A stretch of 49,151 nucleotides of DNA from a virus. Its lineage: Duplodnaviria > Caudoviricetes. The notes beneath the pieces are model-generated. The model ran no database searches and was not told the DNA's origin. It saw nothing but the letters and a program-made list of their open reading frames with translations. Position numbers and translations under genes: made by a program. Shown here in pieces: positions 20,765 through 49,151 of this stretch. Position 1 is the first letter of the stretch. Each line of letters opens with the position of its first letter. Where the stretch lies: positions 1 through 49,151 of the IMG/VR virus record IMGVR_UViG_3300037440_000532; one strand, 5' to 3'.

Positions 20765-22696
20765 TTATGGTGTCCCGCCCCATTCGGTGTTCTTCGAAGA
20801 ACCTGCCATGACCGGATCGCCTATGACGCTGACAATATTCGCGTCCGTTATTTCCATTGCATACGTTACGCCGTCGTTCGGGACCACCCGGCCGTTGCAG
20901 ATGACCGTGCAGCCCGAGCCCGCCGCGTGCGTGACGAATCCCTCTCCGGCGAAATAGATGTTCCCGGAGACGCAGGACGCATCGACGGTGACCGCGCCGT
21001 AGCCGCAGTGCATGTTGAACTGGTTCGAGCCGGACTTGTCCTTGATCGTGAACATCCCGAAGGCATTGACGATGTTCCCCTCGGCCTGCCCCACGCTCAC
21101 ATTTACCATGGAGGTCGTATGCGACCGGACGCCGTTCACATGCACATGGGTCGTCGGGTCGTTCCGGTACGAGATGTTTCCGTCCCAGAGGGCGTTCTCG
21201 ATATGCCCCCAGATCTCCGAGGTGTTGATCATCAGGACATTTTCAAAGGAACACCACCCGCCCAGCACGCCGGTGATCTTGAGATTGCGGACGATGCTGT
21301 TTTCCATGATGCAGCCGGCCTCAAACGTGAGCAGGTGTTTGAAGGTCGAATGCGCCTCGATGATGAAGTGGGAGACATCGATCCCGCTGGCGATGGTTGC
21401 ATCGGAATGAAAGTGCAGCTTGTTCGCCACGAACTTCTGCGCCAGGAGAAGCATGTCCGGCAGGTTGTCCACGGGGTTGTCTGCGTCACGGAGCCCCTGC
21501 GGGTAATCGCTCCCCGCATGGCCGGCCACCGCATCAAAATAGATCGTCTCGTGGTACTGGTCGATGACGGGGATCTGCAGACCGCTGGTGTCGAGAATGT
21601 CCTGCGGCAGGCTGGAGTAGTTGTCGAATTTTGCCACCCCCCCGACCACCACCTTTGCAGCCAGCGCGATGGAGGCTTCGAGGATCAGGTGTCCGGCGTC
21701 TACGTTAAAGCTCCAGTTGCAGTCCGCATGATTGATGTTCTGGACCGTTATCTTGCCCGTCCAGTCGATGAAGTTCACGTCCGCCATGCAGCCGTTGCAG
21801 TCCACCGTCACGGCATCCGTCCCGGACGGGCCGTAGCAGCTTATGAAGTTGAACGTTCTGTCGGCAATGTCCTTGAACTGGACGGACCCCATCAGCATAC
21901 AGTCGATGATATTCGCATCCCCCCCGGAAGCGCAGAGTCCCACGATGTCTACAAGATGGCAATCGGTCATGTCCATCCTGCCGCCGCAGGTGCCGGTGAT
22001 GGTCAGGTGCTTCATCTTTGCCGCCGTGGTAGTGTTCCCGGCGGTCATGGTCAGGAGCGTCGAGGACGGATCCTCGCCAACCACCGTATAGCCCGCAACA
22101 CTGTCCGTAGCTCCGAGGGTCAAATTGCCAAGAATATAAAGCGTTTTGAAACTATGGGACTGCGCGATAATCATGGCATCCGCAAGATTATTAACGGGAA
22201 ATTCTTTATTGCCTTTTAGTCCGTCTGTTCCCGACACGCCATTTATAACATCAATCGTTACCCCTCCGTCAAAGGACATCCGGTTGACTGCCGCGATTTC
22301 CGCTTCTGCCCTGACAAGCTCTGCTGCGGGAGGCGTGATGTAGAGTTTGAGCGGCTGGGTCCTCGTGCTGGTATCGAAGGGGTCGGGGTCCACGTCGGCA
22401 TTGTCCGTGATGGCTTCGCCGGTGACTTCAATCAGTATGTTCTCGTCATAAGGGACAACCCGCGTGCCGTCGAGCAAGGTCACGAAACGCGGAGTATATT
22501 TCCCGCCGCCTTTGGGATCGTTGCCGGCCGCCCGCATGAGAGGGTCCCAGGTGCGCGCAGCTTCTACGGTGCGCCGCCAGTTGCGGTACTCCTTATAGAT
22601 ATCGTCAATCCAGTGGAATGTCGTCACTCCCTGAATTAGATATATCCGCCGGGTATCCCCGTTCCAGCTATCGACTACGGGAACTGCTACTGACAT
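20765..22696 (-). CDS. Putative virion protein with beta-helix-like repeats
   Basis: 643 aa. Duplicated motif (G..G..G...PVNNLADA / G..G...G....PVDNLPDM) followed by beta-solenoid-like sequence. Confidence 0.6.
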   Translation of the reverse strand: MSVAVPVVDSWNGDTRRIYLIQGVTTFHWIDDIYKEYRNWRRTVEAARTWDPLMRAAGNDPKGGGKYTPRFVTLLDGTRVVPYDENILIEVTGEAITDNADVDPDPFDTSTRTQPLKLYITPPAAELVRAEAEIAAVNRMSFDGGVTIDVINGVSGTDGLKGNKEFPVNNLADAMIIAQSHSFKTLYILGNLTLGATDSVAGYTVVGEDPSSTLLTMTAGNTTTAAKMKHLTITGTCGGRMDMTDCHLVDIVGLCASGGDANIIDCMLMGSVQFKDIADRTFNFISCYGPSGTDAVTVDCNGCMADVNFIDWTGKITVQNINHADCNWSFNVDAGHLILEASIALAAKVVVGGVAKFDNYSSLPQDILDTSGLQIPVIDQYHETIYFDAVAGHAGSDYPQGLRDADNPVDNLPDMLLLAQKFVANKLHFHSDATIASGIDVSHFIIEAHSTFKHLLTFEAGCIMENSIVRNLKITGVLGGWCSFENVLMINTSEIWGHIENALWDGNISYRNDPTTHVHVNGVRSHTTSMVNVSVGQAEGNIVNAFGMFTIKDKSGSNQFNMHCGYGAVTVDASCVSGNIYFAGEGFVTHAAGSGCTVICNGRVVPNDGVTYAMEITDANIVSVIGDPVMAGSSKNTEWGGTP

Positions 22697-22705
22697 TCAG
22701 TCTCC

Positions 22706-24211
22706 CTATGCGTTTGTATCCGCGCTCGGGGCGCAGGTGATCGGAACCACGGCGCTCCGGGTGATCGTGGCGTAGGTGATCGCCTGGCCCGCCCCGCCGT
22801 CGCCCTCGACGATGACCACGATGTCCTTGTCCACGCCAGCGGAAAGCCCCGCCTGGGTGTTCGTGTCGTAGGAATAGGCGAAGCTGATCTTACCGGCTAC
22901 CTGATCGGTTGCGACGTTGCCCTTCACCGGAGTGCCCGATGAATCGTTGACCGTGACGGCGCTCGCCGTGTCGAAGTCCGCGCCCGCCGCGCCGTCTGCG
23001 TAGTAAACGTGATACCAGGCGTTCGCATCGGCAATTGCCGCAGCGCCCACCGTGATCTGCACATCCGGGAAGTACGGATAGGTCAGTTCGGCAGCGGCAT
23101 CGTCGGTCATGATGATGTTCTGCTTCTCTGCCGTGGATAGCCCTTCAATGAACAGGCCGTCGCCGCCGATCGAGGAAGTCACCACTTTACCGGCTGCGTT
23201 CCTGCTGTACCAGACGCGGCCCTTTTTGCCGGTATAGGTACCGGCTCCACTGTCGATATCGGAGTTCTGGAGCGACAAGGCATCGAGGTAAGCCGCACAC
23301 TGCTGGACCGTGCCGCCGCCCGTATTATGCAAGACCCAGGTGAACTCCTTGTCATCGCCCTGGTTGAACCCGTCCTCAAGCTGCGGAGAGGCGAGCTTCT
23401 CGAGCGTCATGCCGGTCCACGGAGCGATCTTCGCCCCGCCGTAGACATCGGCAAGGTCATAAGCATTCGACGGGTTGATCGTCTCGCCCACGCCGTAGCC
23501 GGCCGAGAAGCCCGAGAACTCGGCAATACCCGTTGCCACGCTGGTCGTCTCGCCCGGGTTGTAGCCCCAGGACCGGACGCGCACGACGAGGGTCCTGGTT
23601 GTATAGTCGAAATCCCCGGCGCCTGCATCGCCGTACGCGGTGTCTCCGTACACCTGAACGGCTTCGTTGATGTCCCCCGTCCGCACGAAGTCCGCCCAGG
23701 TTGCAGCCTGCAGTGTCGCCTCGTCCGTAGCAGTGACAAGCGCCGAGAACGGAACGGTGCCGGCCTGTACGTCAACGAGGGACACGACACCATGATAGAT
23801 ACGGTCGATATCCGTTTCACCATCCTGCGTATCGGCGTACTCGATCCAGCCCGAAGACCTGATCTTGTTCCGGTCTGTACCGTCAAGCTTTACGCCATTG
23901 ACAAAGGCGAAAGCACCAGCAAACCGATACTTACCCTTTGTGCCGCGAAGAAACTGACGAAGCGTTTCATCCGTCACGCGCTCCTGGTTATCAAAGTTGT
24001 ATATCGCCCGCATAGTGATGCCATCAGTGTTATTAAGCGGATTCGTTACTGCTCCGCCGCCAAAGTCCACAGTGGCAAGCTCATCAACTCCAATCAACTG
24101 CACTTCGTTGTTTGCCTTGTCATAATAGAAGTTCCCGTTCGGCGTGGATCCGCGCGCAGTTGTAGACTGCTTGAGTGTCGTGCTGTAGTTTGTATGATCG
24201 ATGAGTGACAC
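22706..24211 (-). CDS. Putative virion structural protein
   Basis: 501 aa, Gly/Thr/Ala/Asp-rich and beta-rich, GTG start with SD. Confidence 0.6.
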   Translation of the reverse strand: MSLIDHTNYSTTLKQSTTARGSTPNGNFYYDKANNEVQLIGVDELATVDFGGGAVTNPLNNTDGITMRAIYNFDNQERVTDETLRQFLRGTKGKYRFAGAFAFVNGVKLDGTDRNKIRSSGWIEYADTQDGETDIDRIYHGVVSLVDVQAGTVPFSALVTATDEATLQAATWADFVRTGDINEAVQVYGDTAYGDAGAGDFDYTTRTLVVRVRSWGYNPGETTSVATGIAEFSGFSAGYGVGETINPSNAYDLADVYGGAKIAPWTGMTLEKLASPQLEDGFNQGDDKEFTWVLHNTGGGTVQQCAAYLDALSLQNSDIDSGAGTYTGKKGRVWYSRNAAGKVVTSSIGGDGLFIEGLSTAEKQNIIMTDDAAAELTYPYFPDVQITVGAAAIADANAWYHVYYADGAAGADFDTASAVTVNDSSGTPVKGNVATDQVAGKISFAYSYDTNTQAGLSAGVDKDIVVIVEGDGGAGQAITYATITRSAVVPITCAPSADTNA

Positions 24212-24223
24212 GGATTGTCTCCT

Positions 24224-25801
24224 TTATGCGTTTTCCTCTTTTTTAAGAAGCGCCGTAAAGCTCCCGTTTGCGGTCGGCATCGTGACCTGCTGCCCGAACT
24301 CCACATACCCGGCAAGCATGATCTGTATCCAGATAACGTTCCCGGCCGTGCCGCCGTACGCATAGGTTGCCGATCCGTGCGATTCCGTGCCCGCGAGCTC
24401 CGTCCCGAGATTCGGGAGCGTATCATCGAGGTCGTAGATCCTGACCTCGGCTCCGGACAGGCTGACCGGCGCGGAGATGGTGAGCGTCACGCTGGCGCTT
24501 ACGTGTACGGTGCAGCCTGCCGTGCGGATCGACGGGATGGTGCCGCCCGAGATGGAGATGGTCATCTCCCCGGAGGCAATGTTGACGTATATAGCCTCGT
24601 TGCCGGTCGTGCCGTCGCTTGCCGCATAACCGGAAAAATCCACGTTCGTGAGTGTCATGTTCGCGGCCGTGCCGCTGATTTCTATGGCGTAGCCGGTACC
24701 GTCGGAGATGAAGGTCGTGTTCGCAATGAGTGCCGCAGCCGCCGGAGAGGATGCCAGAGCCGCGGCAGCCGCCGTGCTCTGATCGAAGGTGCAGCCGTCG
24801 AATATCCCGCTGCCGACCGTCACCTGTCCGCACCTACGGAAGGTAGTGTCGTTCACCGTGGCGTTTCCCTGGAATACGAACGTGTCCATGTCGGTGAACG
24901 TACAGAAATCGAAGTTCACATCCGCGTTCGCAACCATCTCAAACCGGCCCTTGCTGACCGTGCCGAGCGCCTGGATCGAGATGCCCGACCAGTCCACGCG
25001 GGAGGTGGCCTGCTCGACATCGATCTTGTTGAACGCCGCCGTGACCTTGGGGGTCTTGTCCACAAGGATTGTTTTGTTTGCATCGCGGAAGTCTACCGCG
25101 CTGGTGTACCCGAGCCGGACCAGCCCCTTCCATAAAAAGCCGCCATCGATCGCCTGAATGAGCCCCCACCGGTTGGAGGTGCTGTCGTTTGTCGCCGCGA
25201 ACCCCGCGAAGGTAGCATACCCGTTCGCAAGATCGCCGCCGTTCATCCGGGCCTCGCACCGGCCCCAGCGGATCGCGTCAACAGCGTGCGGGTTGCCCTT
25301 GCCGATGCCGGTCAGCACTTTCACCGCTGCGCCGATATATTGTTCCGTCGAAGAGGGAGCGGACGTACTCTGCCCGTCATTCGCAACCGTTGTATTCACT
25401 GCGTGGTTCTGCCAGCCGCCATAGGGCATGCGTCCGAAATCTGAGCCGCCGACAATCCAGTACTTGAACGCATTCAACGCCGAGCCGACCAGTACCCGCA
25501 TCCCGCCGTTGGCGTAGGTATCCATTGCGCCCGGTGAGGTCCATATTTGCCAGACCAGAAAGGCCCCGTCCGTGGGAAGCGTGATCCCGGACCCGTTGTT
25601 GGCAAGCAGGGAACAGATGGTTGCCTTGGTCATGGCCTGCGAAATAGACCCGTTACCCTGGATGTAGGGATAATCCACGTCCAGTGTGGGCGAGCCGCCG
25701 TCGTCATAGTTCGCATCGGTGGACTCGGCCCAGTTCGTGGTGGCTTCAGCCAGGTCAACCACCCCGGAGGTCAAATCAGTTGTGTAGCTTGGGGCTGCCA
25801 T
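24224..25801 (-). CDS. Putative virion protein with beta-helix-like region
   Basis: 525 aa with pectin-lyase-like repeats (FDFCTF, NDTTF, DGCTF, NTTF, NVDFSG). Confidence 0.6.
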   Translation of the reverse strand: MAAPSYTTDLTSGVVDLAEATTNWAESTDANYDDGGSPTLDVDYPYIQGNGSISQAMTKATICSLLANNGSGITLPTDGAFLVWQIWTSPGAMDTYANGGMRVLVGSALNAFKYWIVGGSDFGRMPYGGWQNHAVNTTVANDGQSTSAPSSTEQYIGAAVKVLTGIGKGNPHAVDAIRWGRCEARMNGGDLANGYATFAGFAATNDSTSNRWGLIQAIDGGFLWKGLVRLGYTSAVDFRDANKTILVDKTPKVTAAFNKIDVEQATSRVDWSGISIQALGTVSKGRFEMVANADVNFDFCTFTDMDTFVFQGNATVNDTTFRRCGQVTVGSGIFDGCTFDQSTAAAAALASSPAAAALIANTTFISDGTGYAIEISGTAANMTLTNVDFSGYAASDGTTGNEAIYVNIASGEMTISISGGTIPSIRTAGCTVHVSASVTLTISAPVSLSGAEVRIYDLDDTLPNLGTELAGTESHGSATYAYGGTAGNVIWIQIMLAGYVEFGQQVTMPTANGSFTALLKKEENA

Positions 25802-35096: not shown

Positions 35097-35990
35097 TTAT
35101 CCAATCATCGTCCAGTTGGCCGCATCGATTCCCGCCTCCCGCAATGCGTTTTCTAAATTCCCAAACCGCTCCATCACGAGTGTGAGAGATGGAGTTCCGT
35201 TAAAATATTTCGGTAGTACCCGCCCCTTTTCTCTATAGATTTTTCTTATGCCAGAAACAATAAAAACATCTTTTGCCTGCATCCCCGCAAATGATACTTT
35301 CCGCATTGCCGTTTTTTTTCGGTGCGCATCGTAATTAATTTTTGATTCGTCAAAGTCTCCCGCCAGTTTTTCCTTAGCCTCGTTCTCTTTCATATCTGCT
35401 CGATATCCCAGATACGCGGTCAGTGTGCCAAATTTAAAACGTATTCGATCATAGAGCGGTCCGTCAAAGTTCCGAAGGTCGCGCTCTGTCGGCGTCTTCC
35501 CTACCTCCTGCGCTACGATGTCAAACCTATAATTCACCTGGTCGGGGCACAAGCCCCTTTCATTCAATGCCGCCAATGTATTTTTTGATTTCAAAGATGC
35601 CGCCGCCCTAACTATTGTTTGTTTAGTTTTGTTTGCTTTGATCCGAGCAACACAGAGCTTATTGTTATTCCTGCAACGTTCAATGTTCTGTGGCGTCGTT
35701 GCGGCCTCTTTCAATTTTTTTCTTATCTGCCTAGACAGCAATACATCTTTAAGACGCAACTCAAATTTATTTTTATATTCTGCAGACTTCATCCTGTGCT
35801 GCCATTGAACGTGTCGAGCTAGATCTTCATACCAATCCCCGCAAATGTGACACTGCAATCTACCATCAGTTGCGCGCTCTAAAATGACCCCCGGATAACC
35901 GTGCCCATCTACCAACTTTTTAAACGGAGGGTGCAATTTATAAAGATTGTACGATGCCGTGCCTTTTGGTAATTCAAAATCAATACTCAT
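35097..35990 (-). CDS. Ros/MucR-type zinc-finger protein with C-terminal helical DNA-binding-like repeats
   Basis: LQCHICGDWYEDLARHV...H.M...EYK.KFEL, then GKTPT...KFGTL and RFGNLENALREAG repeats. Visibly AT-richer than its flanks. Confidence 0.72.
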   Translation of the reverse strand: MSIDFELPKGTASYNLYKLHPPFKKLVDGHGYPGVILERATDGRLQCHICGDWYEDLARHVQWQHRMKSAEYKNKFELRLKDVLLSRQIRKKLKEAATTPQNIERCRNNNKLCVARIKANKTKQTIVRAAASLKSKNTLAALNERGLCPDQVNYRFDIVAQEVGKTPTERDLRNFDGPLYDRIRFKFGTLTAYLGYRADMKENEAKEKLAGDFDESKINYDAHRKKTAMRKVSFAGMQAKDVFIVSGIRKIYREKGRVLPKYFNGTPSLTLVMERFGNLENALREAGIDAANWTMIG

Positions 35991-41035: not shown

Positions 41036-41596
41036 TCAGGGGTGTCCTTTCTGTGCCGGGGTGGATCCTGCGCCGAGCTGCTCTCTCCAGGCTGCGCGGC
41101 AGTCGGGGTCGCACCAGGGGGTTTCATTGGTGAGGGGCTTGCCGCAGAGGGCGTTCTTGCAAAAGCGCGGGGCTGGGTCTTCCTGGGCGGCTGGGGTCGC
41201 AATGACGGGCTGCGGAACGGCCGGGCGGGCCTGTGGTACGGGCTGGGGATGCTGCCCCGGGGTCCATGGGGCGATGCGGTAGTCGACCATGCTGCGGCCG
41301 GTCTCTGTGTCCCACACGGGCAACAGCTGCCACGATGGGCGCCAGCCCGGGGCGCTGATGAGCCAGTAGCGGTATTTCCGGTCAGGGAAGTAGGTGCCAG
41401 GGGAGACGACATACCCCGGGTTCTCTCCGAGCTCTCCGATGGTGGTGGATGGGTTGGCGATCCAGGTGCCGCGGCGCTGGGCCTCGAGCTGTATCTCCAT
41501 GCCGGTCATGGGCCCGGAGGCGTCTTTCAGGATCGCGAGCAGGAGCTGGAGCGTTTTGCTGTTCGCGATGTTTCTCCAATGAAAGGTTTTTGGCAT
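41036..41596 (-). CDS. Hypothetical protein (wHTH-like N-terminus, Zn-finger C-terminus)
   Basis: SD GAGGAG, C....CGKPL....WC...CR. Confidence 0.65.
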   Translation of the reverse strand: MPKTFHWRNIANSKTLQLLLAILKDASGPMTGMEIQLEAQRRGTWIANPSTTIGELGENPGYVVSPGTYFPDRKYRYWLISAPGWRPSWQLLPVWDTETGRSMVDYRIAPWTPGQHPQPVPQARPAVPQPVIATPAAQEDPAPRFCKNALCGKPLTNETPWCDPDCRAAWREQLGAGSTPAQKGHP

Positions 41597-41599
41597 ATG

Positions 41600-41806
41600 C
41601 TACTCCTCGTCCAGCGGGTTCGGCGCGTTCCTGAGCCTGCACCAGCTGGGGATGGGCCCGGAGATTGGATACTGGATTTTACGGCCGTACCGTCCACAGT
41701 AGATCGTCTCTCCGGAGGAACAGTCCGTGCATCTGGTGACGACACGGGCGCGGTCGATCTTGCCATTGACGGTGCCGGCGCTGTCCTGAAAGTGGCGATC
41801 GCTCAT
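41600..41806 (-). CDS. Small Cys-rich protein
   Basis: CTDC...C...IPSWCRL. Confidence 0.6.
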   Translation of the reverse strand: MSDRHFQDSAGTVNGKIDRARVVTRCTDCSSGETIYCGRYGRKIQYPISGPIPSWCRLRNAPNPLDEE

Positions 41807-41994
41807 GGCCGCCAGAACGCCAGTAATGCGATCAGCAGGCAGGCTACGGCGACGCCCGCAGCCAGGACGAACAGCCCGGAATGGGGGCAGAAGAAGAGAC
41901 GCCTGGCGCCACAGAGGCTGTGGGTGCTGGTGCACTCGTGGTAGTCGCCCCGGATGGACGAGCGGCGAAACTGGCAAAGCTCTGCGGTTTTCAT
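41803..41994 (-). CDS. Small protein with C-terminal TM
   Basis: SD AAAGGA, ATGA coupling. Confidence 0.55.
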   Translation of the reverse strand: MKTAELCQFRRSSIRGDYHECTSTHSLCGARRLFFCPHSGLFVLAAGVAVACLLIALLAFWRP

Positions 41995-42074
41995 GCGGTG
42001 TTCCTTTCGTTTGTACGTACTTAGCTGGTAATCGACCGCCCAACTAAAGGGCGGCCACTGGGTAAAAAAAGAGG

Positions 42075-43133
42075 CTATGTTAACCTGTCTGCCGGGCTTG
42101 TCACGGCAGATCCCTGGCCGGCTACGTGGGTGTAGATCATGGTGGTGTTCAGATCCTGATGCCCCAGGAGCTCCTGTATGGTCCGAATGTTCGTGCCGGA
42201 CTCGAGCAAATGCGTTGCAAAGCAGTGCCGGAGCGTGTGCGGCGTGACGCGCTTGGTGATGCCCGCCTTGCGCACGGCTACCTTGAATACCTTCTGGACC
42301 GCGGAGTCCAGCAGGTGGTGCCGCCTCTGGATAAGAGTGCCGGCAATGCGATACCTGGTTGCGGCGGGGAACACCCACTGCCATGCCCACTCTTTGGATG
42401 CGTTCGGGCTTTTCTTGTCGAAAGCGTCGGGCATTTCCACTGCGCCGAATCCGTCGCGGAGGTCCTGATCGTGGGTCTTTTTGACCTGATCGAGATGCCG
42501 CTTTAGGCGGTCTTCGATGATGAGGGGCATGGGGACCACGCGGTCTTTTTTCCCTTTGCCTCTGTGCACGATGATCTGATGGCGGGTGAAGTCGAGGTCT
42601 TGAACGCGCAGCTTGAGGCACTCGATCTGGATGCGCAGCCCGGCGCCGTAGAGGAGGGTTGCTATGATCGAGTATTGACCGCGGAGATGGTCCATGACGG
42701 CCTTGACTTCGTCTTTCGACAGAACGGTGGGGATGTTGATGCGGCGTTTTGCGCGGACGGCGTCGAGATTGCCGAGGTCTTTCTTGATCACACGGGTATA
42801 GAGGAACAGCAGCGCGTTGAACGCCTGGTTCTGTGTGGACGCGGACACGTGCTCCTTGACGGCAAGGTGCGTGAGGAACGACTCAACCTCCGGGCCGCCC
42901 ATGTCCTTGGGATGACGCACGTTGTGAAAATAGATAAAGCGCCGCGTCCAGTGCCGGTATGCTTTCCAGGTGTCGTCGCTGTAGTGCCGGACAACGATCG
43001 CCTGGTGCAGCTGGTCGAGCAGCTTCGGGGGGGCCTGCTCCACAGAGACTGACGACGGAACGTGGACGCTTTTCGCCGAAGAGTCACGCCGCTGGTCAAT
43101 AGGATAAATATTTGCTTTTGCTGTGTTTTGCAT
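42075..43133 (-). CDS. intI: Integron integrase
   Basis: [38 protein letters not shown], the integron-specific I2 region ([28 protein letters not shown]), [16 protein letters not shown] and [13 protein letters not shown]. Confidence 0.97.
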
Positions 43134-43159
43134 CGGTTCCTCTCCCTAGCCCTGTATTG

Positions 43160-43198
43160 TGATAACACTCCGTTGTGGGCGGATAAAGATAGTTGGTC
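43160..43198 (+). other. attI: attI-like site (crossover G/TT at 43192/43193)
   Basis: TGATAAC-ACTCC-GTTGTGG followed by GGATAA-AGATA-GTTGGTC. GTTGGTCTCCCC is complementary to the end of cassette 1 (43318-43329). Confidence 0.7.
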
Positions 43199-43218
43199 TC
43201 CCCTTCGGTGGGTCGGCT

Positions 43219-43608
43219 TTAAGCATTCCGACGCTTGTGCTCTTTCCATAGCAGTTGTAGGCATTCAAATGTCGTCATTGAACAATGAGCGCCTCCCTTA
43301 TCTTTGGATGAATCCCCGGGGAGACCAACGGCCAGCTGTGAACCAGTCGTGTCAAGCTGTTGTTCGCCCGAAGGGGCGACCAACAAAACGCTCGACCCGA
43401 CATGACCCGCAGTCGTCAGGGCGAGGCCTTGAGCTTTAATGGCATCCAACACAGCGCTCGCCCGCGTGTAGCCCCACCGAAAGCGCCTTTGGAAACGTGA
43501 CGGAGTTGGGGGCATCCCTTCAGCCTCTACGTTTCGCAGGGCTCGCTCCAAGTCCCCAGGTTGCGGCTCGAAAAAATATGGCTCTTCTGTTATCGAATGA
43601 TCGCTCAA
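43219..43608 (-). CDS. FtsK gamma-domain-like wHTH protein starting inside the attC1 loop
   Basis: PSRFQRRFRWGYTRASAVLDAI resembles the FtsK-gamma LQRRLRIGYNRAARII pattern. TTG start after a purine-rich SD. Confidence 0.65.
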   Translation of the reverse strand: MSDHSITEEPYFFEPQPGDLERALRNVEAEGMPPTPSRFQRRFRWGYTRASAVLDAIKAQGLALTTAGHVGSSVLLVAPSGEQQLDTTGSQLAVGLPGDSSKDKGGAHCSMTTFECLQLLWKEHKRRNA

Positions 43609-43650
43609 TTCCTCTCCCTTCCTCCGCTGCGGGTCAGCTGGCCGTTATGC
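43378..43650 (+). other. attC: attC1 (273 bp, gene-containing loop; anti-arm at 43318-43369)
   Basis: R'' GACCAAC, L'' GCT(C)GACC, L' GGTCAGC, R' GTTATGC. Confidence 0.7.
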
Positions 43651-43875
43651 GCCTAAAATCTCGAATGCTGCCGGACTCGGCTCTATGTCGCCCGCCGTGA
43701 AGCAAACATCGAACGGAGCACCTATCGGTATTATTCCTTTGTCGCCGCAGCTCAAGCATTCTGCAAGGGTATGTTCTGGAAGATTGGTGATCTTAATAAT
43801 CCCCGATTCTGGCCTCCCGCCTTTGCAGTCAACGTGCCAAAAACAACGTGGAAATTTCTGTATTGTTATCTTCAT
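43645..43875 (-). CDS. Cassette 2 ORF, Zn-ribbon-like hypothetical
   Basis: SD AAAGGA, CFWHVDC...CLSC. The TAA stop lies within R' of attC1. Confidence 0.7.
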   Translation of the reverse strand: MKITIQKFPRCFWHVDCKGGRPESGIIKITNLPEHTLAECLSCGDKGIIPIGAPFDVCFTAGDIEPSPAAFEILGA

Positions 43876-43906
43876 TTCACTGTCCTTTCATCGAAGAGAT
43901 AAAAGC

Positions 43907-43963
43907 GCCTAACCAGGCTGCTCCAGCGCGACGGCTACGCCGCGCCTGAGCACCGTGTTCCAG
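43907..43963 (+). other. attC: attC2
   Basis: GCCTAAC...GCT(C)CAG...CTGAGC...GTTCCAG. Confidence 0.88.
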
Positions 43964-43993
43964 CGGTCACGCTTCAACTGACAAGTTTCGTCG

Positions 43994-44128
43994 CTAACGT
44001 GTTGTCAAAAAAAGGTGGAACGCATAAATTGCGCTGGTGAGCGCCCAGAGTACGGCTGTCCAGTCCCGATGCATTCCTGCGGATACAGCTCCTAATATGC
44101 CTATTGCTACTCCTGTAAGGTATAGCAT
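43994..44128 (-). CDS. Cassette 3 ORF, 44-aa two-TM membrane protein (not in the ORF track)
   Basis: SD AAAGGAG, MLYLTGVAIGILGAVSAGMHRDWTAVLWALTSAIYAFHLFLTTR. Confidence 0.7.
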   Translation of the reverse strand: MLYLTGVAIGILGAVSAGMHRDWTAVLWALTSAIYAFHLFLTTR

Positions 44129-44234
44129 GGGTTCTCCTTTCGATACTACGCTCCTCAACTTCCCATTGTGACCGCTGGAATGGCGGCGATAATTCGCTAA
44201 TTGCCTTGAAACGCGGGCTGGGAAGGCGTGCCCG

Positions 44235-44299
44235 CTGGAACCAAGGCAATCAACATCGACGCCCGCTACGCGGGCAGCGAGTTATCGCCGCCATTGATA
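44235..44299 (+). other. attC: attC3 (anti-arm at about 44168-44218)
   Basis: CTGGAAC...AAT(C)AAC...GTTATC...ATTGATA. Confidence 0.8.
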
Positions 44300-44304
44300 C
44301 GGCG

Positions 44305-44466
44305 CTACGTGGATGTAGAATCTTGCTTCAAAGGGCCTTTTTGCAAAAGGAGTTCTTTCAGAAAGGTATTCTCTCGCCGTAACGATTCCGCTTCGGCCTT
44401 CCATTCTATTGCGGCTTTCATAAGCTCCATTATGTTCCCAACCGCTTTTTTGTCACTGGGTGTCAT
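44305..44466 (-). CDS. Cassette 4 ORF, 53-aa coiled-coil protein
   Basis: SD AAGGAG, MTPSDKKAVG... Confidence 0.7.
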   Translation of the reverse strand: MTPSDKKAVGNIMELMKAAIEWKAEAESLRRENTFLKELLLQKGPLKQDSTST

Positions 44467-44575
44467 GTGGTTTTCTCCTTTGAAGCAGGATTCTTTGAGA
44501 TTGTAGCGCCGTATCAATGGGGCCGTTAAGCCGTGAACGGTAAGCGTTGGTCGATCCGTCGCAAACTACGCGCCG

Positions 44576-44642
44576 TATCAACCAATCCGTTCAAGTCAGA
44601 CCCGGCCCTGTCGGGCCGGGCGGCTTAACGGCCCCATTAGAC
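44576..44642 (+). other. attC: attC4 (anti-arm at 44503-44562)
   Basis: TATCAAC...GTT(C)AAG...CTTAAC...ATTAGAC. Confidence 0.85.
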
Positions 44643-44999
44643 ACTTTTCAATTTCGCTACTTCTTCCGGGTTCTCGTTACGCCATTGCTCCCAACTCGGA
44701 TCGGTGAGCTTCCATTTAATCCAGTCCGGGTGTTCCTTTGAAGGTGAATATGGTTTCTTGATTCGTGGATAACATCGGCGGCAAAGTTGTCCCGGTAATT
44801 TGTCTGACATTGGCATCAACAAGTGTTCTGAGCAAAAATATAGACCACAACCTCGATCTCCACCGTATGGTTCGCTACCGCAGACATAGGAAAGACCGCG
44901 ATCAATCTCTTTGCCGCACCCCGGATGGTCGCAGTACGCAGGTACTCCATGCCCTATGTCACGCTTCCACTTGTCATCGTATCCAATGGACCAACTCAT
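44637..44999 (-). CDS. Cassette 5 ORF, Cys/His-rich phage-type protein
   Basis: MSWSIGYD..W.RDIG.GVPA.CDHP.C...IDRGLSYVCG...GCGLYFC..H. The stop lies in R' of attC4. Confidence 0.8.
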   Translation of the reverse strand: MSWSIGYDDKWKRDIGHGVPAYCDHPGCGKEIDRGLSYVCGSEPYGGDRGCGLYFCSEHLLMPMSDKLPGQLCRRCYPRIKKPYSPSKEHPDWIKWKLTDPSWEQWRNENPEEVAKLKSV

Positions 45000-45013
45000 A
45001 TAACCCCCAAAGT

Positions 45014-45072
45014 GTCTAACAAGGCTGGTCGTGCGGGACGCAAACCCCGCGCCCCACACCACCGCGTTGATA
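45014..45072 (+). other. attC: attC5
   Basis: GTCTAAC...GGT(C)GTG...CACACC...GTTGATA. Confidence 0.88.
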
Positions 45073-45102
45073 CGGCGCTGCGCGCCTGTAGAATTTCAGT
45101 CG

Positions 45103-45276
45103 CTACGCCTTTGTGACAGTCAACGAATGCGGATCTGCATTCAGATCTGCATCTACCAATCGGTTCGAGTTGAGGATGTGTCCCCATATCCCGAGTTTGT
45201 AGCGCAACCACTCATCTACTTCTTGCGTACTGACCATATCTGGCACTTCCAACTCGAACCTTACCCGTATCTTCAT
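45103..45276 (-). CDS. Cassette 6 ORF, 57 aa (not in the ORF track)
   Basis: SD AAGGAG, MKIRVRFELEVPDMVSTQEVDEWLRYKLG... Confidence 0.7.
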   Translation of the reverse strand: MKIRVRFELEVPDMVSTQEVDEWLRYKLGIWGHILNSNRLVDADLNADPHSLTVTKA

Positions 45277-45374
45277 ATCCGCTCCTTCAATTCCTTTATA
45301 TGCAGCGCCGTATCAATGGGGCCGTTAAGTCGTGAATGGCAAGCGGTGGTCGATCCGTCGCAAACTACGCGCCG

Positions 45375-45442
45375 TATCAACCACGCCATTCAAGATCGAC
45401 CCCGGCCCTGGCGGGCCGGGCGACTTAACGGCCCCATTAGCT
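45375..45442 (+). other. attC: attC6 (anti-arm at 45302-45361)
   Basis: TATCAAC...ATT(C)AAG...CTTAAC...ATTAGCT. Confidence 0.85.
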
Positions 45443-46165
45443 TCCATCAAAGCAGCCGCACGGCAACTCAATGTCGTAGCTGCATAGCTCCATTTCCTGC
45501 TGATTATAAATATCTGTGAGCGAGACCGACTCCAGTATCCGGCTTCCCCTGGCACAATTAAGCTCCAAATCCAAAGCCTTTTTGAACAGTTCCGGCCTTT
45601 CGTTCTTCATGTGCTGGTACTGCTTCGGAGACATGAATGGGCATATAAAACACCCGCTTTTCGGCGGATCGGGTAATCCCGCGTTGCGGATCAGTTCCAT
45701 GCACCCGGCCCGGTCAATTCTGTTCTGGAAAAGCGGGTATTTTTTCCCGTATAGCGATGTTTTCGGTTTGCACTTTCGGCCAAAAACTGGCGTCTCTGCA
45801 TTTAATACGCGGCTTTCCTCCCCAGCGTCAAAGCCGATGTATACCGTCACAGGCATCAGCGGGTTAACAATCTCGTCAAACGGTTCAATCTTGAATCGAG
45901 ACGTACACCACCGAAACTGACGGAAGGGGATTATTTTAAGCCTTGTGCAGTATTCATAAAGCCCTTCCTCTCGGCCTATCGTTTCAATGGTCAGTCCGTA
46001 CTGTTTTAGCCATGCTCCGAACGTGTTGACATACTCCAGCGTTTCGGGAAGCTCCGCGCCGGTATCGCAGAAAATAATACGGTCAATTGGCTGTTCGTGC
46101 TGTAGAAGCCAAATCACCATTGCCGTGCTGTTTACGCCGCCGCCGTATGATACGATGTGTTTCAA
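45437..46165 (-). CDS. Cassette 7 ORF, PAPS-reductase-family (PP-loop) protein
   Basis: SYGGGVNS, DTGAE, RWCT..FKI.P and SGCFICPF motifs. TTG start after GGAGG, stop in R' of attC6. Confidence 0.85.
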   Translation of the reverse strand: MKHIVSYGGGVNSTAMVIWLLQHEQPIDRIIFCDTGAELPETLEYVNTFGAWLKQYGLTIETIGREEGLYEYCTRLKIIPFRQFRWCTSRFKIEPFDEIVNPLMPVTVYIGFDAGEESRVLNAETPVFGRKCKPKTSLYGKKYPLFQNRIDRAGCMELIRNAGLPDPPKSGCFICPFMSPKQYQHMKNERPELFKKALDLELNCARGSRILESVSLTDIYNQQEMELCSYDIELPCGCFDGS

Positions 46166-46180
46166 TAAATCCTCCAAGGA

Positions 46181-46235
46181 AGCTAACCAGGACGGTCCAG
46201 CGGGACGCTACGCGCCCCTGACCGCCGCGTTGACT
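46181..46235 (+). other. attC: attC7
   Basis: AGCTAAC...GGT(C)CAG...CTGACC...GTTGACT. Confidence 0.88.
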
Positions 46236-46365
46236 CTGGCATGGGCGGGAATATGATCTTAGGATACTCGCAAGTAGCCATGTGAATAAATTTTCGCCGT
46301 CCAGTTTTCGACATCGGCCACTTTGCGTATTTACAATATCGGCAACCATTTTTATCGTTTGGCAT
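46183..46365 (-). CDS. Cassette 8 second ORF, probably 3'-truncated, reads into attC7
   Basis: CRYCKYAKW...C. The last ~15 codons are attC7 sequence. Confidence 0.55.
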   Translation of the reverse strand: MPNDKNGCRYCKYAKWPMSKTGRRKFIHMATCEYPKIIFPPMPESTRRSGARSVPLDRPG

Positions 46366-46367
46366 AT

Positions 46368-46616
46368 TTATCCCTCATCATAAAATTCTGCCACGTCATG
46401 CACTTCGTTGTCAGCCAAAATTGTAATGGCTGGTGCTGCCTCTCTGATTTCAACAATAACCTCTCCTGCTTTGCGTTTTGGCTCAAGTGCTTTCCATACC
46501 CGTTCTATCGTATGAGCGGCAAAGTAGCTTGTTGCCCGGTGAATATCGGTTGAAGTCTTACCCGGTTCCTTTTTTGTTTCGCCTTCTGTCTCTGATACAA
46601 CGATAAATATTTTCAT
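46368..46616 (-). CDS. Cassette 8 first ORF, hypothetical
   Basis: SD AAAGGAG, 82 aa. Confidence 0.7.
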   Translation of the reverse strand: MKIFIVVSETEGETKKEPGKTSTDIHRATSYFAAHTIERVWKALEPKRKAGEVIVEIREAAPAITILADNEVHDVAEFYDEG

Positions 46617-46637
46617 TGTTCTCCTTTCGACGCGACG

Positions 46638-46695
46638 GACTAACCACCGTGTCCAGATCGTCGCGCAAGACGCGCGACTGACCCGGACGTTCTCC
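46638..46695 (+). other. attC: attC8 (last site of the array)
   Basis: GACTAAC-CACCG-TGT(C)CAG...GTCGCGC-AAGAC-GCGCGAC-TGACC-CGGAC-GTTCTCC. Confidence 0.82.
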
Positions 46696-46739
46696 CCGAA
46701 ACGAAATACCTGATTTTTCCCTATTAGCTAGATACATAT

Positions 46740-46783
46740 CGCGGTTCGAATTACCCGCGGGGGGTGGGGTCGGGGAAGGACCC
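46740..46783 (-). other. Lambda-like cos region (cosQ plus cosN-like)
   Basis: Minus strand GGGTCCT-TCCCCGACCCCACCCCCC-GCGGGTAATTCGAACCGCG. GGGTCCT is the lambda cosQ heptamer and the phage has a GpA terminase. Confidence 0.55.
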
Positions 46784-46853
46784 ATCAATTTCACAGGACA
46801 TATAGTTTTTATTTCTCCGCTGGGTCTCATCTTATTCATGGGGTCTATAACCT

Positions 46854-47168
46854 TTAGGAGGCAATCTGTCTCCCGCCGTTGCCTCGCATCTTGGTTGGGG
46901 CTGTCCTTCTTGATTGTTGCGGTGCGTATATGGACCTGACCACATAATCCAGTTGGCTGGAGATCTTCGCGGCTTCGGCCTTGTGCCTCTGGTGCCGCGC
47001 CTTCTCTCGGTCTCGCCATGCGTAATAGTATGCTTCGAAGTCGAGACGCAGCCATGTCATGGGCTTGCCTACTCCGCCTGACAACCGGCCATGTTCTTTG
47101 ATCCAGGCCTTTGAAATCTTATAGGTGGTGACCAGGTCGGACCTGTCTATGATATCTGCCGGGCTCAC
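46854..47168 (-). CDS. Putative excisionase-like DNA-binding protein
   Basis: Small and basic, HTH-like N-terminus, in the early operon. Confidence 0.45.
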   Translation of the reverse strand: MSPADIIDRSDLVTTYKISKAWIKEHGRLSGGVGKPMTWLRLDFEAYYYAWRDREKARHQRHKAEAAKISSQLDYVVRSIYAPQQSRRTAPTKMRGNGGRQIAS

Positions 47169-47386
47169 TGGTTGCCCTCTGTCCAGAAACCATATACCTC
47201 ATCCAAGCTCTCTACAGGGTAGTCATAACCCAGGCATTCCTTGATACGGAGATGCAGAGTTCTGAGCAGACTCATGGTATCGGTTGCCTCTCCGCGCTCC
47301 TTGTTGCAAAGGGTCTCCAGCTTGATGGCGTTGAATCCGTCTATCAACAGTCCGGTAATGGTTGGTCTCATCTCTGTGACCATCAT
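47165..47386 (-). CDS. Hypothetical protein
   Basis: SD GGGAGG, 73 aa. Confidence 0.6.
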   Translation of the reverse strand: MMVTEMRPTITGLLIDGFNAIKLETLCNKERGEATDTMSLLRTLHLRIKECLGYDYPVESLDEVYGFWTEGNQ

Positions 47387-47388
47387 GA

Positions 47389-47871
47389 CTACCTCCCTGC
47401 GTGCAGGGCCTTGATCCCCTGCAGATAGGCTGAGATCTGCTGGAGAGCTTCTTCGCCCTCTGCGATGATTCCAGATGCCTTCTGTTTGCTGATGCTGTTT
47501 TTTTCCATGGCCTCGGATGATGCGGAGGCCAGGTCTGAAAATTCTTTGATGCATTTAATAAGACTCTGCTGGATATCTTTAAGGTCTGCGTTGCGATCGG
47601 GGAGGCGAACGGCGATGTGGTTGTGCTCGTGGCATAGGCAGTGAAGCGGAGCGCTCCAGGACTCGTAGGGGTTGCCGATCTTCTTACTGGCATTGACGAT
47701 GCGGTTTGTGCGGTCGATGCAGTTGGGGGCTCCTGAGAATGTGCCTCCATAGGGCTCCTGGTATTGGTAGAGAGTGGGAGGCTCCAGCGTCCAGCCGCCC
47801 TCTTTGCAGGCATCGGAGATCAGCTTCGTTTTACCGCCCACTGCCTTTTTCATTGCCTCGAATGACGTCAT
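47389..47871 (-). CDS. cII: Phage regulatory protein, CII family (186/CP76-like)
   Basis: TLYQYQEP...SGAPN..DR...PLHCLC...IKEFSDL...ISKQKA..I..E pattern. First gene of the early operon, SD GGGGAGGT. Confidence 0.7.
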   Translation of the reverse strand: MTSFEAMKKAVGGKTKLISDACKEGGWTLEPPTLYQYQEPYGGTFSGAPNCIDRTNRIVNASKKIGNPYESWSAPLHCLCHEHNHIAVRLPDRNADLKDIQQSLIKCIKEFSDLASASSEAMEKNSISKQKASGIIAEGEEALQQISAYLQGIKALHAGR

Positions 47872-47951
47872 AATTACCTCCCCGGCTTCTGATTGCCCAG
47901 ATAGGGCATGTCTGATACTATCGGTCCATGAACGATCGAGCCCGCGCTCCA

Positions 47952-48057
47952 CCAAATAAAAACGCCCGTCCAGCGGTCTGCGTGATCACCGGGGAGGTAA
48001 TTCTTCGCAGGCCGCCGAACGGGCGTCCCTTTGCAGGTCATGTCTGTTTCTATTTGG
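47952..48057 (-). ncRNA. Putative structured antisense/leader RNA (P4 CI / P1 C4-like architecture)
   Basis: Two stacked stems with G-U pairs on the minus strand. The terminal loop is complementary to the cII RBS (47872-47885) and to an upstream site (48079-48091). Confidence 0.6.
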
Positions 48058-48099
48058 CTATGAGGCCTTAGTACTCCATCCCCGGTAATCATGGATACA

Positions 48100-48129
48100 A
48101 AGGTACCAGAACACTTGCCATTTTGTCAA
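48100..48129 (-). promoter_or_regulatory. Early leftward sigma70 promoter
   Basis: TTGACA-N18-TACCTT with an extended -10 TG, divergent from the repressor. Confidence 0.7.
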
Positions 48130-48210
48130 GAGTTTTTTACACAAAATATCTTTACTATGTGGAAAGAGGCCTTGCTTGTCATTATGGATGCAATAGTTTA
48201 CAGTTTTATC

Positions 48211-48627
48211 ATGACTTTTGAAGAGGTTATAGGAAACAGAATTAGACAGGTAAGACGCAGTAAACTCCCAGTGATGAGCATTGAGAAGCTGGCTGAACTG
48301 TCTGGGCTATCCCGGCAGACGATTACTTCTATTGAAAAGGGCAAATCTAAAAAGGTAGCGATCTCAACCATCACCGCTATTGCGCGCGCACTTTCCGCAT
48401 CGCTCGATGATCTGACTGGAGATGCTTGGAAAAATGCAGCCATTGCGAATGAACAGGCATCTGAATATTTACCGGACAATAAAAAAGCAGGAAATCAGGC
48501 AACACATGCACAGCGCGGGAAGACGGTGAGAAAACCCTCACCAGTGGAAGAGTATTATACGGAGGATGGACAGCGCAAACCCAAGGGACAAGAACAGCAT
48601 AAATCTAAAAGGGAAAAATCAGCGTAA
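48211..48627 (+). CDS. XRE-family HTH repressor (CI-like)
   Basis: IGNRIRQVR...MSIEKLAELSGLSRQTITSIEKG...IARAL. No S24 peptidase domain is evident. Start may be 48184. Confidence 0.85.
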   Translation: MTFEEVIGNRIRQVRRSKLPVMSIEKLAELSGLSRQTITSIEKGKSKKVAISTITAIARALSASLDDLTGDAWKNAAIANEQASEYLPDNKKAGNQATHAQRGKTVRKPSPVEEYYTEDGQRKPKGQEQHKSKREKSA

Positions 48628-48804
48628 TTCTTTTGCAAGCTTTATCAAGTTCGCGGCAAATTTCTCTATGGCGCGTTCATATATTTCACCGTTTTCCTTA
48701 TAGGTGCAATTGCGGCAGTCGGGTCGTGCTATTATGACGCCTTCATGGGTTGCCCGCCGTATCGGCACCACTTTATTATTATTGACATCAAGCAATATGC
48801 TCAA
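48619..48804 (-). CDS. Small hypothetical protein
   Basis: 61 aa with CRNC, TTG start. Confidence 0.4.
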   Translation of the reverse strand: MSILLDVNNNKVVPIRRATHEGVIIARPDCRNCTYKENGEIYERAIEKFAANLIKLAKELR

Positions 48805-48947
48805 TTGAAACCGCCTTTCTACTCCAGAAATTATAATACTACTAAAGCACTAGAATTATAGAATGTCAATAATACTTACGGGGTATTTTCAGGCGATTGA
48901 CAATCATTAAACCTACACGAACGGGTAGGCATCTAAAGGAGAAATAT

Positions 48948-49151
48948 ATGTTTAAATTGGTAATAATTTCCATAGCCGCTTGCCTGCTGTTGACCGCATG
49001 TCCGCCGCCTAATGTAGAATTGTCTCCTGCCGGGATGAAAGTTCCGATGATTTCCTCGGACCTGGCGCAAGCGCTACCGGGAAGGCCGCTTGATCGGTGC
49101 ACCATCAAAGCTCACATTGGGACAGAAGAGTCTTTTTTCTGCCTCTCGACT
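48948..49151 (+). CDS. 5' part of the lipoprotein gene (continues to 292); candidate superinfection exclusion
   Basis: SD AAAGGAG, signal peptide with lipobox LTAC. Confidence 0.75.
   Translation, partial: MFKLVIISIAACLLLTACPPPNVELSPAGMKVPMISSDLAQALPGRPLDRCTIKAHIGTEESFFCLST

Follow-up and report, generated by a model that had tools for sequence, protein, structure and literature searches.

Integrons are treated as bacterial devices, and the choice of strand serves to face genes toward the promoter Pc (PMC5027507). The canonical systems, IntI1/attI1/attC and VchIntIA/VCR (PDB 2a3v), contain an IntI with an insertion and the catalytic residues, an attI next to the start of intI, cassettes with complementary ends, and attC hairpins with an extra L'' base that face away from intI. 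The portions of text covered from a study by Qi et al. in 2023 record 3 complete integrons in 10,705 phage genomes, all host or class 1 captures (PMC9892861). The same portions report phage integrons and CALINs with attC sites, cassettes and methyltransferase cargo, as in the viral set compared here, and describe no systematic inversion. In the inverted-integrase integrons of Treponema and Acinetobacter, intI and the cassette genes share one strand, on which the attC sites also lie (PMC4889954).

The record IMGVR_UViG_3300037440_000532 (the window, the whole stretch of 49,151 nt that was analysed) is a temperate tailed phage with terminase, portal, capsid and tail genes, a repressor and an integrase of its own. 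Its ends are complete, with direct terminal repeats of 127 bases, despite which CheckV gives a completeness of only 69%. With a probability of about 70%, it holds a phage-resident integron with attC sites in the ordinary orientation and cassettes coded backwards, likely shuffled by IntI and read by the early promoter. The integrase end and the operon end of the locus are as follows:

42075..43133, minus strand: intI, integron integrase of 352 aa (TIGR02249, 408 bits), co-oriented with the early operon
43184..43199, plus strand: attI-like simple site, putative crossover G43192/T43193 (43192|43193) as read from the sequence
47389..47955, minus strand: CII-like regulator (PF06892, phrog_101), upstream of the array and in the same orientation
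48129-48100, minus strand: candidate early promoter, TTGACA-18-TACCTT plus TG motif, read from the sequence
48211..48627, plus strand: cI-like HTH repressor (HTH_3 and HTH_26), divergent

The locus shares the canonical traits listed above, with a putative attI; cassette 8, which holds two ORFs, has non-complementary ends. As in the published definition of a complete integron (PMC4889954), an IntI is present and a cluster of attC sites lies beside intI; the adjoining intI separates it from a CALIN. It differs from the canonical Pc-driven layout, with ORFs on the attC top strand, in that all nine ORFs occupy the bottom strand, in that intI and the cargo run in the same direction within a phage operon, and in its three ATT triplets and four double-fold sites. 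Like the inverted-integrase type it has intI and cassette genes on one strand; unlike that type, its attC sites (plus) oppose intI (minus) and the ORFs are inverted. It also differs from the host captures in the covered text of PMC9892861 by an IntI at most 56% identical to those of 80 GTDB loci in a partial scan, by the viral context of its IntI clade and by phage-type cargo.

The array had been placed in an early operon by an earlier note on this sequence, and the setting is indeed the early operon of a temperate phage: intI, all nine cassette ORFs (as that note had it) and the operon share the minus strand. The promoter it proposed at 48100-48129 is present as a motif; the match to consensus is weak and a consensus promoter scan did not flag it. 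No sigma-70-like, Pc-like plus-strand site was found at 41500-44001, using a consensus that may not match the host's promoter type, and the same scan gave no promoter-like minus-strand site between attI and intI. The cassette genes and intI would be transcribed from the phage early promoter and not from Pc. With intI in the direction of the operon, the cassette genes would have to be inverted to join the same transcript, because the attI upstream of intI points away. In the lysogen, the cI-like repressor would hold IntI silent. LexA likewise represses IntI in many cellular integrons.

The IntI passes NCBIfam TIGR02249 well above the cut-off of 265 bits, and its residues 43-351 align with VchIntIA (2a3v), the integron-specific insertion region being present, which bears out the claim of an IntI with the I2 insertion. 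It belongs to an 11-member clade (62-75% identity), together with the relative L003, in which R167, K193, H299, R302, H325 and Y334 are invariant in 11/11 proteins. The clade is virus-associated, its members with known context being viral in a tree whose backbone is weak and whose sampling is biased by the search patterns. The viral relatives were found with the clade alignment as query; a search of viral contigs with the single IntI protein returned nothing. An attI had been claimed at 43160-43198, and an attI-like site does lie there, refined here to a crossover at the point listed above. Its core, TAAA-N4-GTT, is common to the window and L003, and the bases after the crossover are complementary to both R'' copies of site c1. 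Integration and excision of cassettes by this IntI probably follow the common attI x attC pathway, in which the bottom strand is recombined.

Eight attC sites follow, within 0.2-3.6 kb of intI, and the array terminates in one of them:

43323..43650, plus strand: site c1, inner attC 43378-43650 with a loop of ~240 bases, upstream inverted copy (covariance model 17.4 bits; folds)
43907..43963, plus strand: short site c2 (22.7 bits)
44175..44299, plus strand: site c3, inner attC 44235-44299 (R' ATT), upstream inverted copy (11.6 bits, partial)
44512..44642, plus strand: site c4, inner attC 44576-44642 (R' ATT), upstream inverted copy (20.3 bits)
45014..45072, plus strand: short site c5 (24.3 bits)
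45311..45442, plus strand: site c6, inner attC 45375-45442 (R' ATT), upstream inverted copy (covariance model, inverted arms, covariation)
46181..46235, plus strand: short site c7 (28.1 bits)
46638..46695, plus strand: short site c8, the last, crossover 46689|46690 (24.3 bits)

The covariance model was our own, trained on 44 cellular attC sites, and not that of IntegronFinder. A window-wide search gave nine matches, the top eight being these sites, all on plus (28.1 to 11.6 bits); the sole minus-strand match is weak and spans 31 bases. A hand-written finder recovered 7/8 sites on plus and none on minus, and in 30 shuffled controls it found no site in 28 and one site in 2. The extra C of L'' is visible on plus in 8/8, as the earlier note had seen for an array pointing away from intI. 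The direction can be fixed without this rule, because the inner R'' copies match the start of the left-hand cassette at 4/4 long sites; in the phage sequence L229 the inner R'' likewise matches the left cassette start, with different bases. Minus-oriented canonical cassettes were rejected on both grounds, the orientation of the eight model matches and the tracking of left cassettes by R''. AAC/GTT triplets and an R''-L''-L'-R' hairpin with an extrahelical base are found in c2, c5, c7, c8 and the inner c1, and the R' triplet is ATT instead of GTT in c3, c4 and c6. The earlier note mentions neither these ATT triplets nor the double structures described below. For IntI1, a first-base crossover mismatch lowered recombination 10^3-10^4-fold (PMC2811028), so ATT sites are expected to be poor recombiners with GTT partners.

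The cassettes between these sites encode the following:

43219..43608, minus strand: cassette 1 ORF, FtsK-gamma-like N-terminal part, starting inside the c1 loop and reading through the site arms
43645..43875, minus strand: cassette 2 ORF, 76 aa, Cys-rich, stop in R' of c1
43994..44128, minus strand: cassette 3 ORF, 44 aa, hydrophobic
44305..44466, minus strand: cassette 4 ORF, 53 aa
44637..44999, minus strand: cassette 5 ORF, 120 aa, Cys-rich, phrog_18518, stop in R' of c4
45103..45276, minus strand: cassette 6 ORF, 57 aa
45437..46165, minus strand: cassette 7 ORF, PAPS-reductase-like, 242 aa, PF01507 and phrog_424, stop in R' of c6
46183..46365, minus strand: cassette 8 ORF a, 60 aa, reading through c7
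46368..46616, minus strand: cassette 8 ORF b, 82 aa

The three stops within the previous R' are TAA at 43645, 44637 and 45437, as had been read. A clear RBS near R'', claimed for all nine in the earlier note, accompanies most of the cassette ORFs. The name PAPS-reductase-like holds, with no close viral relative found for this cassette; the FtsK-gamma-like ORF falls below the Pfam cut-off (21 vs 30.6 bits). The last 19 codons of that ORF (43219-43278) have their own RBS and ATG, and no shorter homologue was found. No family match was obtained for the cassette 2 ORF. The cargo derives from the pool of phage genes, as the earlier note had proposed: the cassette 5 gene lacks attC sites in 28/29 viral relatives and is an inverted cassette flanked by different attC sites in 1/29, and across the loci compared, PHROG matches were found for 25/79 inverted-strand ORFs, 10 of the 25 being methyltransferases, vs 1/68 canonical-strand ORFs.

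The layout recurs in about two dozen other phage sequences. By a simple ORF score, 109 viral cassette intervals comprised 50 inverted, 24 canonical and 35 unclear, vs 8, 104 and 10 among 122 cellular intervals. By majority, 25 of 36 viral loci were inverted, 10 canonical and 1 remaining, vs 2 inverted and 26 canonical among 28 cellular loci, with none remaining. L003 has the same layout, with seven attC matches and a different cassette set, as the comparison of related phages called for in the earlier note had anticipated. Inverted arrays span several unrelated IntI clades and phage types, including Mu-like phages (L005, L006, L020, L067), and the view of a single domesticated integron gives way to that of one member of a widespread class. 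Two viral sequences, L010 and Rctr41k (L228), resemble the inverted-integrase type, with attC sites on the intI strand, canonical cassettes, and cargo and intI again on one strand.

Integrons carried by phages are known; a literature search found no published description of backward-cassette phage integrons. Uncultured phages as a group break the orientation rule, and the arrays are stocked with accessory genes of the phages themselves, methyltransferases being frequent. Tentatively, phages may run integron lineages of their own, turning resident genes into backward cassettes, shuffling them under repressor control at induction and trading them between phages with and without intI, in some cases with a two-state DNA switch, an attC set within a three-way junction and open to recombination only if the strand is peeled in one direction. 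This would give phages a programmed means of shuffling genes in the arms race and, if true, phage early regions would be a place where new cassettes arise. Where members of one gene family occur unpackaged in some phages and, packaged independently, as inverted cassettes in others, the states before and after packaging can be compared, and any model of cassette genesis has to account for the mirror polarity.

Four sites (c1, c3, c4, c6) consist of an inner attC and an upstream inverted copy, allowing a three-way fold. The arms of c3 are 44179-44198/44276-44295, those of c4 are 18 bases long and perfect, with covariation support, and c6 is a homologue of c4; in c1 the start of the cassette 1 gene sits in one arm of the fold. 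The three-way fold is predicted to beat the inner attC fold by 21-26 kcal/mol, with 94.7% of cells paired and four pairs altered on both sides among three related copies. Even in isolation, c1 forms its inner fold poorly (2.9e-5), and the inner fold of c3 is weak. In c4 and c6, predicted L-box pairing is 0.8-0.9 at 3/4 early exposure points and falls to 0 after the inverted copy is exposed. The long sites would thus be two-state: the inner attC fold would form while the minus strand becomes exposed 5' to 3', and once ~50 further bases are free the three-way fold would hide attC, likely protecting long-site cassettes from excision most of the time. The upstream copy is possibly a lock on attC, and the double-fold sites would be a directly testable means of tuning excision. 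In the low-pfold Vibrio VCR the most stable fold is also non-recombinogenic and lowers excision (PMC5371416), whereas the window uses a dedicated covarying inverted copy outside attC; the predicted inner-fold pfold is 1e-15 to 1e-19, vs 1e-5 to 1e-7 at the low end of the VCR, computed under different constraints. In a scan that recovered 3/4 of the window's own long sites, anti-arm copies lay upstream of 1/152 viral and 1/166 cellular attC sites, both resembling chance or a neighbouring site. The exact c4/c6 hairpin pattern had 0 viral matches. Five matches to the c3 arm pattern were set aside as poor folds resembling chance, and the attC model found no site in the 3 of the 5 that were searched.

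It is possible, if rather doubtful, that the three-way fold acts in mRNA around a working attC, through RNase III-type processing or as a stabilising leader of the small ORF that follows. The genes are coded on the minus strand, the RNA folds reach -77 to -87 kcal/mol with stems of 18-20 pairs ending just 5' of the RBS, and the long sites accompany the shortest ORFs, or none. However, the outer copy follows both the beginning of the cassette and the A/T switch in the crossover triplet, a pairing that exists only in the excised circle, and an Rfam search gave no family match, its single sub-threshold hit to a plant microRNA being rejected. More doubtful is a three-way fold that is itself the recombination substrate, for IntI or for a second recombinase without the integron insertion, such that the cassettes serve two systems. 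AAT pairs perfectly with ATT in the outer R box, and the cassette-end complementarity there reaches 11-15 bases, but the outer stem has neither an extrahelical base nor an unpaired spacer, and the window yielded no candidate for a second recombinase apart from the phage integrase. For cassettes 3 and 6, and in L229, an A-type cassette also follows a G-type junction, an arrangement that by the mismatch rule of PMC2811028 the inner fold would permit with one wobble and the outer fold would not.

The reading of a phage integron worked by its own IntI has to be set against one in which the array is real but mobilised chiefly in trans, by host or co-infecting integrases, the phage intI being a passenger or rarely used. 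Inverted cassettes of the window's type occur without a TIGR02249 match in G001 (L229, 93% complete) and G003 (L246, 64% complete), from which it follows that an own IntI is not required, and the contigs of run X1, possibly the source sample and covered as contigs only, contain no excision joints or cassette circles. Against this stand the full length of intI, the residues conserved across its clade, its own RBS and the attI core common with L003, and the trans reading is unlikely.

A role for the replication fork, by which inversion would keep the attC bottom strand on the leading-strand template from a presumed nearby phage origin and reduce cassette loss (the principle of PMC5371416), fits the window, L003, L045, L053 and L060, in which intI is followed by helicase genes. 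Inverted arrays are found as well after primase and before terminase (L014, L019) and in the Mu-like phages, on which grounds it was rejected as a general cause; it is quite unlikely. Very unlikely, too, is a mirror use in which IntI recombines the plus-strand hairpin and the cassettes are canonical relative to the cut strand. The stops in the box and the RBS placement are an exact mirror of ordinary cassettes, the IntI clade carries one extra residue behind the catalytic Arg together with a shortened insertion region, and the left arm has 9 bases instead of 8 in 6/8 sites. Yet the attI-like site lies at the intI end and the terminal attC at the other, each inner R'' copy goes with the cassette on its left, only on the minus strand do the stem mismatches amount to tolerated wobbles, and the inversion recurs in unrelated IntI clades. 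A host integron captured whole and now a static relic, or a chimeric assembly, is highly improbable: captures are described for Vibrio and Shewanella phages in the covered text of PMC9892861 and the L010 IntI nests among cellular IntI, but here the array carries phage-type genes in inverted orientation, viral sequences supply the closest IntI relatives of known context, the phage flank, intI and c1-c4 stand together on a 4760-base contig that matches without a single differing letter, the other run X1 pieces tile the array without differences, and the halves of c4, and of c6, are complementary in the assembled pairing alone.

The only hint of variation in run X1 is at the attI-distal end of the array, where a contig ends at 46691, beside the c8 crossover. 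Depth steps along the array (18.9, 12.5, 11.3, 7, 19.5) were set aside as evidence, a 37-base c4/c6 repeat explaining two contig breaks; lower GC could also reduce depth. Within the cassettes, the promoter scan found 22 promoter-like sites on the plus strand vs 6.5 +/- 3.4 expected, and these could drive antisense RNA.

An integron integrase gene (intI), a predicted attI-like site and eight attC sites (c1 to c8, with cassettes numbered outward from intI) make up an integron that is real and, in its anatomy, complete by operational definition, and that is not of the canonical Pc-driven type. Its anatomy is read directly from the sequence, crossover points being given as the two nucleotides between which they fall.

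42075-43133, minus strand: intI (TIGR02249, 408 bits against a cut-off of 265)
43192/3: attI-like crossover, predicted
43644/5, 43957/8, 44293/4 and 44636/7: crossover points of c1, c2, c3 and c4
45066/7, 45436/7, 46229/30 and 46689/90: crossover points of c5, c6, c7 and c8

A covariance model was trained on 44 attC from cellular and metagenome loci, selected by a custom finder that presupposes the extra base in L''. Across the whole window the model returned nine matches. The best eight are the eight attC sites, every one on the plus strand. A hand-written finder recovered seven sites in the region, against none or one in shuffled versions. All nine cassette ORFs are on the minus strand, with the RBS beside R'' and three stops falling in the preceding R'. 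The earlier note had claimed both the plus orientation of the sites and this opposed, or inverted, arrangement of the ORFs, and both are borne out. Cassettes 1-7 each have complementary ends (one mismatch in cassette 2); this property is symmetric and by itself gives no direction. In the long sites (c1, c3, c4 and c6), the inner R'' copy matches the start of the left-hand cassette in four of four cases, and in the homologous site of another phage, L229, both copies are altered together with its own left cassette. The site body therefore travels with the intI-side cassette, as the plus orientation requires. Cassette 8 (46230-46689) has non-complementary ends and contains two ORFs, the first of which reaches a stop only via c7; two cassettes may have fused here. 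The cassette 1 ORF ends, in frame, in a 19-codon ORF (43219-43278, minus strand) that has a separate RBS and may be what this cassette originally carried.

Phage integrons with inverted cassettes form a class. A clade-alignment search yielded 65 viral, at least 80 metagenome and at least 80 GTDB loci with an IntI relative, and the covariance model gave 173 matches in 66 viral sources (GenBank phage Rctr41k included) and at least 204 in at least 100 cellular or metagenome sources. After duplicate contigs, most singletons and distant matches had been left out, 152 viral and 166 cellular or metagenome matches entered the analysis. Cassette direction was called with a simple score that combined ORF length with the RBS. 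On this score, 50 of 109 viral intervals were inverted, 24 canonical and 35 unclear, against 8, 104 and 10 of 122 cellular intervals, the intervals not being independent of one another. By locus majority, the inverted, canonical and unclear counts were 25, 10 and 1 for viral loci (n=36) versus 2, 26 and 0 for cellular loci (n=28). In arrays that run opposite to intI, each strand's best ORF (minimum 45 aa) was compared with PHROG; matches were obtained for 25 of 79 inverted-strand ORFs versus 1 of 68 on the canonical strand, and this lone match overlaps a methyltransferase on the opposite strand. The matched inverted cargo includes ten methyltransferases, two PAPS-reductase-like proteins, two radical SAM proteins and one Lar-like protein.

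Both lambdoid-type and Mu-like phages are among the carriers of inverted arrays. In four Mu-like transposable phages (L005, L006, L020 and L067) the integron lies downstream of the transposase genes. The nearest relative with genomic context, L003 (63%), has an identical attI core and seven attC matches opposite to intI, with cargo that differs from that of the window. One L003 attC (5402-5455) is near-identical to c8 and carries a different ORF, and a 2.5-kb multi-gene stretch separates the attI-like site of L003 from its first attC.

Exceptions to this layout occur. In locus L010 and phage Rctr41k, attC and intI occupy the same strand and the downstream cassettes are canonical, so that intI and cargo share one strand here too, reached through another layout. 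In Rctr41k (L228, KX853513; 4680-10101) the gene named 'xerD' is IntI-like, with 42% identity to the window IntI, and is followed on the same strand by approximately six attC-like matches with canonical ORFs. Table 1 of PMC9892861 does not list this phage among its complete integrons. In the cellular or metagenome loci L139, L146, L151, L154, L174, L185, L214 and L080, the attC array shares its strand with intI, the inverted-integrase layout, or extends on both sides. No paper on phage integrons with inverted cassettes was found in a literature search that covered few subscription journals; Supplementary File S1 of PMC9892861 could show the ORF strands in phage arrays.

The cargo consists of phage genes, as had been suggested from its phage-style character, and the relatives of the cassette 5 gene illustrate this. 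In 28 of its 29 viral relatives the gene lies among ordinary phage genes with no flanking attC. The remaining relative, in record L246, takes the form of an inverted cassette; the attC sites on its two sides differ from those in the window, and the array has eight matches. No IntI match was found in the L246 record (64% complete) or in the L229 phage (93% complete), and the cassette pool therefore extends past the carriers of intI.

VchIntIA is the sole relative of the window IntI with a solved structure at E<1e-30. Ten database proteins with 62-75% identity to the window IntI form a distinct group against a background of at most 58%. The group retains all catalytic residues and shares a single inserted residue following the catalytic Arg, which P0018 has as well. 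A FastTree tree of 110 sequences places the window IntI with L003 and the database clade (0.97), its neighbours being P0018 and L006/L018, and several further virus-only clades bear inverted arrays. As the backbone of the tree is weak, one origin is not separable from several.

The window, a whole virus record of 49,151 bases, is a temperate tailed phage with direct terminal repeats of 127 bases and a CheckV completeness of 69%. Genes were recognised for a gpA-type terminase, lambda-type portal, ClpP-capsid fusion and tail proteins, and further for DnaB, SSB, a replication initiator, a methyltransferase, a CII-like protein and a divergent cI-like repressor. The phage also has its own tyrosine integrase (73-1500). 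Three large ORFs of 643, 501 and 525 aa between the portal and capsid genes (20765-25801, minus strand) have no Pfam or PHROG match, and a replication-region ORF (35097-35990, minus strand) matches ROS/MucR and an HNH-repeat.

Within the early operon, the integron is flanked by the CII-like gene on one side and the replication genes on the other, all on the minus strand. Cargo and intI would be expressed from a candidate early promoter, TTGACA-18-TACCTT at 48129-48100, which was not flagged by the promoter scan; the same scan gave no Pc-like or Pint-like site near attI. Two terminator-like matches on the minus strand lie inside cassette ORFs. The cI-like repressor may control expression of the array, for which SOS/LexA control of integrons is the comparison. 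Promoter-like sites number 22 in 41500-49151 versus 6.5 +/- 3.4 in shuffles. Three of them, on the plus strand (44294-44321, 45067-45094 and 46230-46257), face against the cassette ORFs, and in each the -35 hexamer is the TT-start of a cassette (at R' of c3, c5 and c7, respectively); judged from these motifs, antisense RNA is possible.

One sediment DNA run contains the region and may be the source of the record. Its contigs tile the array without a mismatch, and a single contig runs through the phage flank, intI and c1-c4, which speaks against a chimeric assembly. Excision junctions, which the earlier note had proposed to look for in reads, were not found among the contigs of this run. One contig stops at 46691, just past the c8 GTT, and overlaps the following contig by 30 bases. 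An end at this place would be consistent with an alternative path beyond the last crossover point, a weak hint, that path not being among the contigs listed. Variants of c1 and c3 occur in low-depth contigs, where their flanks differ. Other low-depth contigs of the run conserve the intergenic DNA that separates c8 from the following early gene (46726-46844), in which two hairpins are seen by eye.

In each of the four long sites, the inner attC is preceded by inverted copies of its right arm (12-20 pairs) and of its left arm, a double-fold arrangement that the earlier note does not describe. By computation, a minus-strand three-way junction beats the attC fold by 21-26 kcal/mol; in c1 the start of the FtsK-gamma-like ORF sits in one arm of the junction. 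Among c4, c6 and the L229 site, three related copies only, pairing is kept in 94.7% of cells and four pairs are changed on both sides, versus none in slid controls. The inner attC is preserved, with its extra C and L-box pairing, and its mismatches are of the kind that form wobbles on the minus strand, the bottom strand that the window IntI would recombine. With the minus strand freed progressively from the 5' side, the computed L-box pairing of c4 and c6 is 0.8-0.9 at most early points, that of c3 approximately 0.25 and that of c1 near zero throughout; for c3, c4 and c6 it falls to zero after a further 52-64 bases. On this modelling the three-way fold may act as a lock on attC with a directional window, at about even odds against two other readings of the same fold, as an RNA leader or as a second substrate.

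The crossover triplet is ATT in c3, c4 and c6, and A-type cassettes are placed behind G-type junctions in the window. For IntI1, the first base must match between partners (PMC2811028). The G.T wobble of the inner fold could allow such placement. Double-fold sites are rare elsewhere in the sampled arrays and are present in one other phage, as two records.
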